Assembly: GCA_014360335.1 (NCBI GenBank)
Contig: JACIXS010000341.1
Location: 540 to 64,539, forward strand
DNA: 64,000 bases
Direction of reading: 5' to 3'
Source: a bacterium
GTDB lineage: Bacteria > DUMJ01
In this document: positions 25,594-31,500 of the stretch, one piece after another
How the letters are laid out: the number at the start of each line of letters is the position of its first letter
How positions within the stretch are numbered: position 1 is the stretch's first letter
Program-made: the position numbers

Positions 25594-28500
25594 CTATCAG
25601 ATTTTGTCTATAGTCTCCAGCTATATTGACAGGGTTTGTTTCCCAAGATATAATTATAATGCAATCGTTTTTTGACTACGAAAGGAGGCGATAGAGGAGA
25701 GATAAGGGCATAATTTCTAATAAATGCTTCTTTATAAGTAGGGGTAGATAAAAGTTTATATACGATGGGACTGTAGCTTTTGTAGAAGTGTTTTAAAGAT
25801 ATATAGAAGAGGAGGGAAAATATGAGAGCTGTTAGATGTTTTTTTATAGGTTTATTAATTTTAGGTATTTGTAGCTTAAGCTTTAGTGGTTTAGCTATAG
25901 CTCAACAAAAGGCTACTAGTGTTCAGATATATAACAGCCTTCAAGACTATCAGAAAGCAACAGGGAAGAGAATTGATAAATTCAATGAAGCTCCGATGTT
26001 GGCTGATCTAGTAAAACAGGGAAAGCTTCCTCCTGTAGAGCAGAGACTCCCCAAAGAACCATTGATAGTTGTACCTCTTGAGGAGATTGGTCAGTATGGA
26101 GGAACATGGAGAAGAGTCGCTGTTGGGGTTAATGATGTTGGGATAATTAATAGCAGAATTACCTATGAGAATCTTGTCCGTTGGAGTGCTGACGGTAGAA
26201 AGGTTATTCCTAATGTAGCTACTAAATGGAAAGTAGAGGATGGAGGAAAGACTTTTACCATCTATCTGAGGAAGGGCATAAAGTGGTCTGATGGTCAGCC
26301 TTTTACTGCGGATGATATAATCTTCTGGTATAGGGATGTTTTACTCAATAAAGACCTCACTCCAACTTTTCCTACCTGGCTTACAGTAGAGGGTAAACCT
26401 GGTAAGGTTGAAAAAGTAGATGACTATACAGTCAGATTTAAATTTGATGCACCTTATGGATTATTTATGCAGATATTAGCAGGACCTAATGCCTTAGGTA
26501 TTACTCAGTATCCTGCTCACTATTTAAAGCAGTTCCATATTAACTACACCTCTAAGGAAAAACTTGAGGCTATGGCAAAGGAGGCTGGATTCCAGCTGTG
26601 GCATCAATTATTTTCTAATAAACAGAGTTGGCAAAATCCTGATTGTCCAAGGATATGGGCATGGGTAATTACTACTCCTCCTCCATCTACTATTATTATA
26701 GCTACCCGGAATCCTTACTATTGGAAGATTGATACTGCAGGAAACCAGCTACCTTACATTGATAAGATAAGGTTTGATGTAGTCGAAAATGTAGAAGTCC
26801 TTAATATGAAGGCTATGGCTGGCGAGATAGATATGCAATTTAGGCATATTGTATGGACGAACTATACACTATTTATGGAGAGTAAAGATAAAGGGAATTA
26901 TAGAATACTGAAATGGACTTCTGCAGAAGGTTCTAATGCTTTACTTATGCCGAACCTTAATCATAAAGACCCTGTATTGCGCAAACTTTTTGAAAACGTT
27001 GATTTTAGAAGAGCACTCTCTTTAGCTATAAATAGAGAAGAGATAAATCAGATAGCTTATCTAGGTATGGGTAAACCCAGACAGGCAGCGGTCATCCCTC
27101 AATGCCCTTACTATAAGCCAGAGTATGAGAAGGCTTATGCGGAATATGATCCAGCAAAAGCTAATCAATTGTTAGATAAGATTGGTTTAACAAAGAGAGA
27201 TAAAGATGGATTCAGACTAAGACCAGATGGAAAGACGTTGACGGTAACTATAGAATATGCTCCTCTATTTGGACCTTGGACAGATGTCGTTACAATGGTG
27301 AAGAAATATTGGGAAGCTGTTGGTATAAAGACACTTCTTAAAGAAGAGAGTAGAGACCTGTTTACTACTAGAGCTCAAGCTGGAGAGCTGGATATCGGTA
27401 TATGGACTATGGATAGGTGCTTTACTCCTCTAGTAGAACCACTCTACTGGGTACCTGGTATGCCGAGCGGAACACCTCCTAACAATGCTAACGAGTACCG
27501 GAGATGGTATAGGACTGGCGGTAAAGAGGGAGAGAAGCCACCTGAGGATATTGTAAAAGTATATCAACTCTATGATAAGGCTAAGAGTACTACCAATGAA
27601 ACAGCTAGGACGAACTATGCCCATGAGATTATGAGATTGAATGCTAAGAACCTTTGGGTTATAGGAATAGTTGGTGTATTACCCCAAATAGTAATAGTTA
27701 AGAATAACTTTAGAAATGTTCCAGAAGATGCTATTCAAGACTGGCTACAGCTTACAGAAGGTAACACCTTCCCAGAACAGTATTTCTTTAAGACAAAGTG
27801 ATAATAAAGGGGGGAGAAGCGGCTAGCCCCTCCCCCCTAAGATTTAAAAAGGTGGAGGTATATGACTAGTAGGGAGATTGTAATAAAGAGTTTAGAATTT
27901 GAAGGACCAGAAAGAATACCTATGACCTTGCCACCACCCTATCCTAACGATGTGGTTGGGGTGGGTCTAGGTCCAAACCCTTATGTAAGTGAAGAATGGG
28001 TGTATAAAGGAAATAATAGGTGGGAAAGGATAGATGAGTGGGGAAATACTTGGGCTAGACTTGAAGCTTACTCTAAGGGAGAAGTAGTGAAGGGAGCTAT
28101 AGAAGATTGGAGTCAGCTAGATTCTTATAAATTCCCACCGCTAGACTTAGATTCAAGATATGAGCATGCAAGAAGAATCTTTAAGGAGACGCCAGACAAA
28201 TTCCACATAGGATTTCTTCCAGGTTTTCCATTTAGTATAGCTAGATATCTAAGAAGAATGGATAATTTCTTACTAGATGTAGCTGCAGAGAAGGAAAATG
28301 TTACTAAGTTACTTAAGAATATCGCAGATTTACTTGAGATTGTCATAGAAAAGTTTGCCAAAGCTGGTGCGGATGCTATTATGTTTGCCGAAGATTGGGG
28401 AACACAGGATAGGCTCTTAGTCTCACCTAAATCTTGGAGAGAGTTATTTAAACCTGGCTTTGTTCAACTGTGTAATACCGCTCATAAACTTGGACTTTAT

Positions 28501-31500
28501 GTCTTTATGCACTCCTGTGGACATATCTATGAGATAATACCAGACTTGATAGAGGTTGGGATAGATGTCCTTCAGTTTGATCAGCCTGCACTACATGGGG
28601 TAGATAATCTAGCTAGAGACTTTGGTGGTAAGGTCAATTTTTGGTGCCCGGTAGATATTCAACAGATACTTCCTCAGAAAGATGAAAAACTGATAGAAGA
28701 ATTTGCTAAAGAAATGATAGAGAAATTAGGTTGCTTTAACGGTGGATTTATAGCTGGTTACTATCAGTCTAATGAGGCTTTAGGTCTTGACCCTTACTGG
28801 CAAGATGTTGCCTGTAAGGCATTTGTTAAGTATGGAAGTTATATAAAATTAAAGAAGGAGGTATAGAAGGTATGAAGCTTTTAAAGGTTAGTGTTACATT
28901 GATCTTGGTTTTGAGTTTCTTAGTAAGCGTATCTAGTTTAGCTTTCTCTCAGGAGAAGGTTGTTCCTGGAGAGTACTACAACCTCTCGGACTATGAGAAG
29001 CTAACTGGTAAGAAGATTCCCAAATTTAACGAGGCTCCTCAATTAGCAGAACTAGTCAAGCAAGGGAAACTTCCCCCAGTAGAACAGAGGCTACCTAAGA
29101 ATCCTCTAGTAGTAACACCTGTAGAGGAAGTTGGACAGTATGGTGGGACTTGGCGTAGAGCCTGGCTTGGTCTTTCTGACCAGTGGGGTCCAAACAAGAT
29201 CTGTGTTGAACACCTTCTTATGTTTGATAAGGGTGGAACTAAGGTGTTACCAAATATAGCAGAGAGTTGGAAGGTTTCTAAAGACGCCAAGGTCTACACG
29301 TTCAAGATTAGAGAAGGTATAAAATGGTCTGATGGAACTCCTCTTACTACCGAAGATGTAATGTTCTGGTATGAAGACCTCTTATTGAACAAGGACCTTA
29401 CCCCAACAGTTCCTACTTGGCTTACAGCTGGTGGTAAGCCTTGTAAGATAGAAAAAGTAGATACCTATACGTTTAGAGTATCTTTCGAACAGCCAAATCC
29501 GCTATTCCTTATAAATATATGCAAATCTGGAGGAAATGCTTTCTTCTTACCGAAACATTATGGTAAACAGTTCCACATAAAATATGTATCGAAAGATGAA
29601 CTAGAGAAGAAAGCTAAGGATGCAGGATTTCAATTCTGGTATCAGTTATTTGATGCAAAGGTAAGTAACTCTAATGCTTGGCTACAAAATCCAGAGCTTC
29701 CAGTCCTATATCCTTGGAAGAATACTACTCTTCCGACAGCTACTACGATGATCTTCGAAAGAAACCCTTATTACTTTAAGATAGACCCAGTAGGGAATCA
29801 GTTACCTTATATTGATAGAATAGCTCATGCCCTTGTAGAGAATAGAGAAGTGATTACAATGAAAGCTGTCGCTGGAGAGATAGATATGCAGACAAGACAT
29901 ATCAGTCTCCCAGACTATACGCTCCTTATGGAAAATAGGGCTAAAGGTAACTACAGAGTCCTCAGCTGGAAACAAGGTGTAGGCTCTGATGTTATGATAT
30001 GCTTAAACCAAAACGTGAAAGACGCTACTTTACGTAAATTATTTGAAGATAGAAGATTCAGGCAGGCTCTATCTATAGCTATTAATAGAGATGAGATATG
30101 GAAGCTTGTATATCTAGGAATGGGTAAACCTAGACAGTGTTCACTTATTAGTGGTGTTGCTTTCTATGACCCAGAATGGGAAAAGATATATGCAGAGTAT
30201 GATCCCAAGAAGGCTAATGAAATCTTAGATAGAATAGGACTTAATAAAAGAGATAGAGATGGATTTAGGCTAAGACCAGACGGCAAGACGTTAGCTTTGA
30301 CTATAACATTCCCTAGTGGTATATTTGGTGCCTGGTCTGATGTTCTAGAAATGGTAAAGAAATATTGGGAGTCTGTAGGTGTAAAGGTAGCTTTACAGCC
30401 AGTTGAAAGGTCTTTATATGTTACTAGATGTAATGCTGGAGACCTAGAAATTGGGGTATGGAACTTTGATAGAAACGCAGCAGTAATGTCCGATCCTGGA
30501 AGGCTCTTAGGGACTGTTACCGATGGTCCTTGGGCTCCACTCTATGGCCAGTGGTATTCTACAGGTGGTAAAGGAGGAGAAGAACCCAAGGGGGATATTA
30601 GAAAGATTTATGAATTTTGGGATAAGGTAAAAGTTACTGCAGATGAAAAACAGAGAAATCGTTTCTTTAAAGAGATAATCAATCTCCATAAGAGGAATAT
30701 CTGGATGATAGGGATTGTAGGAGAATTACCTCAACCAGTTGTAGTAAAGAACAACTTTAGGAATGTTCCAGATGGTATTGTCTGGGATGATACCCTTAGG
30801 TCTCCTAAGAATGCTAGACCTGAACAGTTCTTCTTTAAGCAGTAGCTATTGATAAACCTAGGGGCGAGCAAAATGCTCGCCCTTTTTCTTTTATGTTATA
30901 CTAGTTATTGTAAATTTTCCTACAGGAAAGGAGGGATGCATTTTTATGCTAGATAGGACCATCTTTCGAATGTATGATATACGAGGTGAAGTTGGTAAAG
31001 AGATTACTCCAGAGGTAATGGAAATTATAGGAAAGGCTTATAGCATCTATCTGAGAAACAGAATAGAGAAGGAGCGATATACTGTATCTGTTGGAAGAGA
31101 TGTAAGACTACACTCTAAAGCACTTTTTGATGGACTCGTTAAAGGCTTAAATATAGGAGGAATTAATGTAATAGATATAGGTATCTGCCCAACACCTGTT
31201 CTATACTTTTCCCTCTTTAACCTTGATGTAGATGGGGGATTAATGATTACCGCAAGTCATAACCCTCCTGAATTTAACGGGCTGAAAATATGTGTCGGGA
31301 AAGAGACTATATTTGGTGATGAGATACAGAGGCTTTATGAAATAGCAAGAGATATTGAGAGTGGGAAGATAAAACTAGACTTTGAGAAAGGAGATTTAAA
31401 GTCTTTTGATATACTGTCTATTTACAAAGATTTTCTTGCAAAAGAATTCAGAAAAGGACCTCTAGGAAAGATAAACCCTGGATTAATAAAAGTTGGGATA

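Follow-up and report, generated by a model that had tools for sequence, protein, structure and literature searches.

We analysed a 64,000-nucleotide stretch of bacterial DNA (the window; contig JACIXS010000341.1 of assembly GCA_014360335.1, GTDB lineage DUMJ01), whose lineage is probably that of the Dictyoglomota metagenome-assembled genomes (MAGs). We found that it carries four paralogous genes for family-5 substrate-binding proteins (SBPs) of ATP-binding cassette (ABC) transporters, none of which lies beside genes for an OppBCDF translocator. It is likely that these genes encode four orphan receptors of one subfamily with one common OppBCDF translocator elsewhere in the genome, and that the conserved segment near their N-termini is a signature of this subfamily and not an anchor. 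The four genes are as follows (E values for Pfam PF00496; pLDDT, predicted local distance difference test):

3..1739, plus strand: binding-protein paralog 1, E 4e-69, open in frame at the window start, with about 85 N-terminal residues absent
25822..27801, plus strand: binding-protein paralog 2, 659 aa, cluster C / family 5, TmOppA-SPH1118-MelB subfamily, E 2e-70
25978..26052, plus strand: signature segment of paralog 2, residues 53-77, KFNEAPMLADLVKQGKLPPVEQRLP, predicted helices, pLDDT 96-97
28872..30845, plus strand: binding-protein paralog 3, 657 aa, E 9e-66, signature segment 29022..29096
43367..45349, minus strand: binding-protein paralog 4, 660 aa, GTG start, E 1e-71, signature segment 45110..45184

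Four intact paralogs without adjacent translocator genes

The four open reading frames (ORFs) were confirmed as family-5 members by ORF calls, translations and matches to SBP_bac_5 (PF00496), which scored 223-242 bits against a gathering cut-off of 32.4. Identity to paralog 2 was 55% for paralogs 1 and 3 and 46% for paralog 4. The initial annotation of this DNA had described long identical blocks among the four, but the longest identical run between any two paralogs was only 19 residues. In the conserved segment, any one paralog shared 39-40 of 48 residues with another at a nucleotide identity of only 69-73%; 20-27 of the codons for the identical residues differed, and synonymous sites were saturated. 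Low nucleotide identity and differing codons at identical residues indicate purifying selection on old copies. Thus, the paralogs appear to be anciently diverged, intact copies without recent homogenisation, and gene conversion was rejected as the cause of the segment identity, given the saturated sites and the differing codons. In addition, orthologues with 80-95% identity to the window paralogs were present in several MAGs. Those of paralog 1 in two of the fetched loci (L011 and L012) are full length, 93-95% identical, and have both a putative signal peptide and the signature segment (KFSEAPMLAELVKQGKLPPVEKRLP).

A hydrophobic N-terminal helix (residues 2-26) and a low-confidence stretch (residues 23-31) were predicted in the AlphaFold2 (AF2) model of paralog 2, and Ala-x-Ala-like sites were seen by eye. 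A regular-expression search found no lipobox in the window copies. Since their probable signal peptide is without a lipobox, each copy is probably a free periplasmic receptor.

Neither phmmer (E ≤ 1e-5) nor tblastn (E ≤ 1e-2) revealed an OppB- or OppC-like ORF in the 64 kb, and the canonical adjacency of SBP and OppBCDF genes was absent for all four paralogs. The window has no gene for an Opp/Dpp permease or ATPase, in agreement with the initial annotation. The same state is seen across the lineage. When adjacency was defined as lying within 600 bp of OppB/OppC, 0/34 binding-protein genes of the lineage loci adjoined these genes, compared with 45/76 elsewhere; the lineage set consisted of the MAGs and two NCBI protein records labelled 'Dictyoglomi bacterium'. 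Outside the lineage the usual order is SBP-OppB-OppC-OppD-OppF, and in Dictyoglomus it is OppBCDF-SBP. Meanwhile, five related loci (L001, L002, L003, L006, and L007) have kept the order of paralogs 2 and 3, in which the two SBP genes enclose a gene for a URO-D-like protein (SBP-UROD-SBP).

The initial annotation had also left room for permease and ATPase genes immediately upstream of paralog 1, where the window begins. We found no Opp genes in the 10 kb upstream of its orthologues in L011 and L012. These 10 kb contain genes for transketolase, a URO-D-like protein, glycerol kinase and an ABC exporter, among others. Four ORFs that look like type III CRISPR-associated RAMP-like genes, by eye only, also lie upstream of the paralog 1 orthologue in L012 (L012:355-4478).

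Receptor-less OppBCDF operons in the lineage

When OppC of Dictyoglomus was used as a query, it recovered relatives that cluster tightly, with mutual identities of 86-96%. In other phyla, this SBP subfamily is flanked by a permease subtype that is well conserved, with 61-65% identity between phyla. The following loci have Opp genes and lack a receptor gene in the operon:

L090: GH63-like gene, OppB, OppC, contig end; without a binding-protein gene
L093: deoxynucleoside kinase genes, OppB, OppC, contig end; without a binding-protein gene
L094: deoxynucleoside kinase genes, OppB, OppC, OppD, OppF; without a binding-protein gene
L096: deoxynucleoside kinase genes, OppB, OppC, OppD, OppF, then a GH106-like gene; without a binding-protein gene in the operon
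L097 and L098: OppD, OppF, then no receptor gene

The G+C content of L090 and L093 is that of the window, and their tetranucleotide correlation is 0.97-0.98 with the window and 0.84-0.88 with Dictyoglomus. L094 has a tetranucleotide correlation of 0.97 with L001, and its ENA assembly (ERZ27247220) is numbered close to those of L001 and L002. Dictyoglomus loci gave correlations of 0.67-0.88. These receptor-less OppBCDF cores of matching subtype support, at the level of the lineage, a shared core encoded elsewhere, but they are no proof for the genome of the window. The shared transporter core proposed in the initial annotation is supported insofar as SBP-less operons of the matching subtype occur in the lineage. 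An arrangement in an unrelated bacterium also bears on this proposal. In L092, three such binding-protein genes stand around one OppBC pair; thus, several receptors of the subfamily can group around one permease pair.

We propose that each copy would be transcribed together with its own catabolic genes, namely GH38 and GH2 mannosidase-like genes, GH2 LacZ and phosphoglucomutase genes, or oxidoreductase and amidohydrolase genes (GH, glycoside hydrolase family). Each copy may then capture a different glycan and would deliver it to the common Opp-type OppBCDF encoded elsewhere in the genome, whose operon in this lineage appears to have no binding-protein gene of its own.

Several points weigh against this proposal. 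First, the core was deduced from contigs whose connection to the window is one of composition, of sequence similarity, and of project or assembly series; they do not come from the same assembly. Second, eight orphan loci were found in other lineages as well, and therefore orphan status alone says little. Third, the copies could act in regulation or chemosensing, like SPH1118 (described below). A contig look-up (P0006) intended to find an orphan together with an SBP-less OppBC in the same MAG hit other assemblies and gave only one more orphan.

Another candidate for the core was rejected. An Opp-type operon lies 5 kb downstream of the receptor pair in L003, L006, and L007, but its permease is distant (E 4e-26 versus about 1e-136), its own binding protein does not match paralog 2 at E 1e-30, and the operon is not in the window. 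A moderate OppD-like match in L016 was set aside, since it belonged to a run of short ORFs that, judged by ORF sizes only, had the look of an amino-acid-type ABC system.

The ends of these contigs form a pattern of their own. L090, L091, and L093 end just after OppC and L094 ends inside OppF, so that independent assemblies break at nearly one place. This common break point suggests repeated or near-identical sequence downstream, perhaps paralogous ATPase genes. In L096, some 3 kb beyond the OppBCDF operon without a receptor gene, there is a second system (L096:10030-13016). Its 637-aa receptor has the same signature (KFNEAPMLAELVKAGKLPPVEERLPKEPFVV) and diverges directly afterwards (...GPGVLIPKEDLPDWKVGEYGG); the next gene is OppB-like.

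The subfamily and its characterised relatives

Over residues 41-657, paralog 2 matched three proteins in the PDB: TmOppA (5IPW, E 2e-167), SPH1118 (E 5e-109) and MelB (E 3e-34). DppA, OppA, and NikA proteins aligned to it only from residue 100 onward. The window copies share the size class of 630-680 aa with the TmOppA/SPH1118/MelB subfamily. The AF2 model of paralog 2, built from 62 sequences, had a pLDDT of 94. In Foldseek it matched SPH1118 with template modelling (TM) scores of 0.86/0.93 and a root-mean-square deviation of 2.3-2.4 Å; further matches were 5IPW, MelB, chitin-binding proteins, DppA, and NikA. SPH1118 has been assigned to cluster C (PMC9314435), and judged by the model, the paralogs have the predicted two-lobed cluster C fold with an extra domain.

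The nearest of these relatives is TmOppA of Thermotoga maritima, a putative oligopeptide-binding protein. It is a full-length homologue of the same length class, with a Foldseek identity of 44%, and it carries the same N-terminal signature (ESPMLTKLVEEGKLPPVEQRLPEEPLVV). A complex of TmOppA with a peptide has not been reported (PMC9314435). SPH1118 of Sphingomonas sp. A1 (PDB 7VEQ-7VEW) has the same fold and the signature core LPPVDQRLPEKPLVI, and it binds carbohydrate and not peptide: its ligands are pectin fragments, whereas yeast extract and tryptone gave hardly any binding by differential scanning fluorimetry (PMC9314435). It is also needed for pectin chemotaxis (PMC9314435, PMC7055323). 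SPH1118 differs from the window copies in several respects. The Foldseek identity is 34%, its cleft has a positive charge that suits an acidic ligand, predicted oligopeptide-type ABC transporter genes lie in its vicinity (PMC9314435), and its role in chemotaxis and assimilation is documented.

MelB of Agrobacterium fabrum (Atu4661; PDB 6EPY and others) belongs to the same subfamily at long range and has the core GKLPPLKERLPEEPLV. Its ligands, according to the PDB titles, are the alpha-galactosides melibiose, raffinose, and galactinol. However, the Foldseek identity is 22%, and conservation of the segment is lost in its first half. We take MelB to be encoded together with its transporter genes.

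By analogy with these relatives, the subfamily appears to be one of carbohydrate binders, although its members are usually annotated as 'peptide/nickel' binding proteins. For the window copies, the neighbouring GH2, GH38, and phosphoglucomutase genes would fit carbohydrate ligands.

The N-terminal segment as a subfamily signature

The segment KFNEAP(M/Q)LA(E/D)LVKQGKLPPVE(Q/K)RLP was found in all three window copies with an intact N-terminus, in accordance with the initial annotation, and the paralog 1 orthologues have it too. It had been placed immediately after the signal peptide, but it starts about 25 residues past the likely cleavage site.

The segment had further been taken as an element special to these paralogs. 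This does not hold. The segment or a close variant was present in 120/120 of the best database relatives. Among N-terminally complete relatives of the fetched loci, 101/105 had it, although they were only 38-43% identical overall; these relatives come from Desulfomonilaceae, NC10, Alphaproteobacteria, Chloroflexota, Spirochaetes, and Dictyoglomota. A 51-residue query containing the segment matched 2,586 cluster representatives at E ≤ 0.001, and among the matches listed the segment lay within the first ~220 residues in 150/150. In the PDB, only four distinct sequences contained it (5IPW, two SPH1118 constructs, and MelB), which represent three solved proteins, all of this subfamily. Thus, the segment appears from these searches to be the N-terminal signature of a whole large subfamily, including members inside canonical SBP-OppBCDF operons, and it is no adaptation of orphan copies. 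No publication on the motif strings turned up in a literature search. The signature can be written as [FY]xE[AS]PxLxxLVxxGxLPPVxxRLP and lies ahead of the Pfam domain, so that the carbohydrate-binding subfamily should be recognisable by a simple N-terminal pattern outside that domain.

In an alignment of 45 non-redundant relatives, the segment was the second most conserved 25-residue stretch (0.77 versus a mean of 0.56). Its near-invariant residues are E56, A57, P58, L60, V64, G67, L69, P70, P71, R75, L76, and P77. The initial annotation had proposed mapping the segment onto a predicted structure. In the AF2 model of paralog 2 it was ordered, with a helix at 58-65, a short helix at 72-75 and a strand at 81-84 (pLDDT 96-97), and only residues 23-31 were disordered. 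In the crystal structures of SPH1118 the N-terminal domain comprises residues 2-322, a range that takes in the homologous stretch (PMC9314435). The segment is thus modelled as a folded helix-turn-proline-rich strap at the start of the folded protein and part of the N-terminal domain. It had been asked whether the segment belongs to the canonical fold of all family-5 binding proteins. The answer is divided: within the subfamily it is part of an ordered N-terminal domain, but it is missing from the other family-5 proteins in the PDB.

Because the invariant residues are mainly hydrophobic, proline or glycine, the main role of the segment is most likely structural, that is, packing. The anchoring role suggested earlier is contradicted by its position. 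A lipobox cysteine and an Ala/Pro-rich linker stand upstream of the segment in 35/110 relatives; since the segment is predicted to be folded and lies after the lipobox and linker in these lipoprotein members, it would be neither a tether nor an anchor.

The segment might instead be a constant docking handle for the conserved OppB/OppC subtype, present in all members of the subfamily, whether orphan or not. Its conservation far above that of the rest of the protein would fit this idea, as would its persistence in MelB at 22% overall identity, its co-occurrence with the strongly conserved permease subtype and its independence of ligand type. However, residues of this kind are typical of packing and not of an exposed epitope, and by prediction the segment is well ordered and belongs to the N-terminal domain. 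Moreover, family-5 proteins without the segment, such as DppA and OppA, dock on the same kind of permease. We therefore regard a docking handle as rather unlikely. If it were true, receptor genes could detach from their operons, and interchangeable receptors could be scattered among catabolic clusters around a receptor-less core.

Other possible roles for the orphan receptors

The orphans could serve mainly as sensors, which present their ligand to a chemoreceptor or a two-component kinase and not to a transporter. This is suggested by SPH1118, which is required for pectin chemotaxis, and by the surroundings of some relatives. In L008, some 3 kb separate a related orphan from a gene for a methyl-accepting chemotaxis protein (MCP). 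In L040, a gene for a YesM-like kinase lies between two orphans, and its homologue is found near OppBC in L090 (L090:60-1898), beside an AraC-type response-regulator gene. However, SPH1118 serves assimilation too, and the window copies stand in catabolic operons for intracellular enzymes (LacZ, GH38, and phosphoglucomutase), which need uptake. In addition, we identified neither an MCP nor a sensor kinase in the annotated window ORFs, and SBP-less OppBCDF operons are present in the lineage. A mainly sensory role is thus improbable.

A second possibility starts from the ABC importer genes that the window does contain:

19531..21228, minus strand: fused double BPD_transp_1 permease, 565 aa, NitT/TauT-like, below every NCBIfam cut-off
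18229..19518, minus strand: ABC ATPase with a C-terminal AAA_assoc_C domain, NitT/TauT-like, below every NCBIfam cut-off

These are the only importer parts in the window, and their type as given in the initial annotation was upheld as NitT/TauT-like. They belong to a co-directional group on the minus strand (18229..25557) of lacZ, a GFO/IDH/MocA oxidoreductase gene, the permease gene and the ATPase gene, with gaps of 12-124 bp; among the fetched loci, only L001 and L002 have the same order from lacZ to the ATPase. Paralogs 2 and 3 might pair across families with this permease and ATPase, since the operon is co-directional with lacZ and divergent from the binding-protein operon, and the window has no binding-protein gene of the permease pair's own type. 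However, the permease stands beside the receptor pair only in the window and in the near-identical L001 and L002, and it is missing in L003, L006, and L007. Outside the lineage, the subfamily usually stands beside OppBCDF and was never found beside this NitT/TauT-like permease type, and the binding proteins are of family 5, not of the NMT1/SsuA/TauA type. We consider such a pairing highly unlikely.

Finally, the missing transporter genes might mean that the orphans are decaying remnants of former operons, and the initial annotation had mentioned pseudogenes, but the reading frames are uninterrupted, probable signal peptides, a consensus promoter and a ribosome-binding site are present, the orthologues are kept in several MAGs, and purifying selection is strong on sequences with saturated synonymous sites; decay is therefore excluded for practical purposes.

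Gene neighbourhoods and transcription signals

The genes around the paralogs differ from one copy to the next. Next to paralog 1 are genes for a URO-D-like protein, a GH38 alpha-mannosidase, a GH2 enzyme, an HGSNAT-like membrane protein and a second URO-D-like protein. A third URO-D-like gene stands between paralogs 2 and 3; a phosphoglucomutase gene comes after the pair, and the group is divergent from lacZ (GH2). Paralog 4 has DUF362/Fe-S, 6PGD-like, GFO/IDH/MocA-like and two amidohydrolase genes as neighbours. Three signals were found around the central pair:

25626..25654, plus strand: promoter-like site TTGACA-17-TATAAT, 12/12 matches in a sigma-70 consensus scan, a pattern match only
27808..27838, no strand assigned: G+C-rich 13-bp hairpin in the gap between paralog 2 and the URO-D-like gene, T-run on the minus strand only
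30860..30884, plus strand: terminator-like hairpin with T-run from a hairpin scan, closing SBP-UROD-SBP

The promoter-like site and the last hairpin bracket SBP-UROD-SBP as one unit. The site leaves a leader of about 167 nt to the ATG of paralog 2, with an AGGAGG ribosome-binding site ahead of the ATG. No Rfam family matched the 167-nt leader, and across the window the Rfam and tRNA scans yielded a single tRNA-Gln and nothing else. The 13-bp hairpin is possibly an intra-operon processing or stabilising element, which could raise the level of the receptor transcript relative to the downstream genes.

No regulator gene was found in the region of 21.3-32.4 kb, as the initial annotation had noted for this sugar block. 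In relatives, a LacI-type gene is divergent from the receptor pair (L003:8746-9765 and L006:3707-4702); the window lacks it.

The URO-D-like family

The URO-D-like proteins have the MtaA/HemE fold and are encoded at three places in the window:

27862..28866, plus strand: URO-D-like protein between paralogs 2 and 3, PF01208 E 1e-18, below all NCBIfam cut-offs
1774..2922, minus strand: URO-D-like gene, PF01208
7638..8660, minus strand: URO-D-like gene, PF01208

The family falls far below the NCBIfam cut-offs for MtaA and HemE. We counted 29 URO-D-like genes in 2.28 Mb of fetched loci. They occur together with the receptor/Opp family in several phyla (L024, L028, L037, L042, L076, L100, L101, L113, L118, L132, and L156). 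In L092, three of them stand in a row (L092:8088-11821) inside an SBP-OppBC-SBP-SBP cluster. Three residues of the family, the invariant H217 together with C219 and C318 (each conserved to at least 90%), resemble in sequence the HxC...C zinc site known from MtaA and MetE. In Foldseek, the AF2 model (pLDDT 94) matched HemE and MtaA with TM scores of 0.6-0.7; an additional N-terminal part of the model is rich in beta structure. We identified no corrinoid protein in the annotated window ORFs, and a literature search on URO-D-like genes in glycan loci found nothing relevant. Among the side observations, we find it most intriguing that an uncharacterised URO-D-like family turns up again and again with this transporter family.

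Implications

The sharing of one translocator by orphan receptors is an established theme. To judge from its citation in PMC12838199, the review by Thomas 2010 ('Homes for the orphans') deals with several or orphan receptors per ABC translocator. MppA with OppBCDF, Cbc, and Athe_0597/0598 (Anaerocellum bescii) are likewise cases in which several receptors of differing specificity use one translocator. Specific to the present case are the uncoupling across the whole lineage and the receptor-less core: in contrast to those systems, none of the 34 receptor genes in the lineage loci adjoins OppB/OppC, at least four copies occur in 64 kb, and the presumed core would have no receptor gene.

These results leave two leads, the role of the signature segment and the role of the URO-D-like enzymes that accompany the transporter family. 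They also matter for annotation, since genes routinely named 'peptide/nickel' binding proteins appear to belong to a carbohydrate-binding subfamily. For uncultured Dictyoglomota-like bacteria, the capacity for sugar uptake would not be readable from operons. If receptors and translocator are encoded apart, counts of complete ABC operons would therefore underestimate the substrate range of these bacteria.

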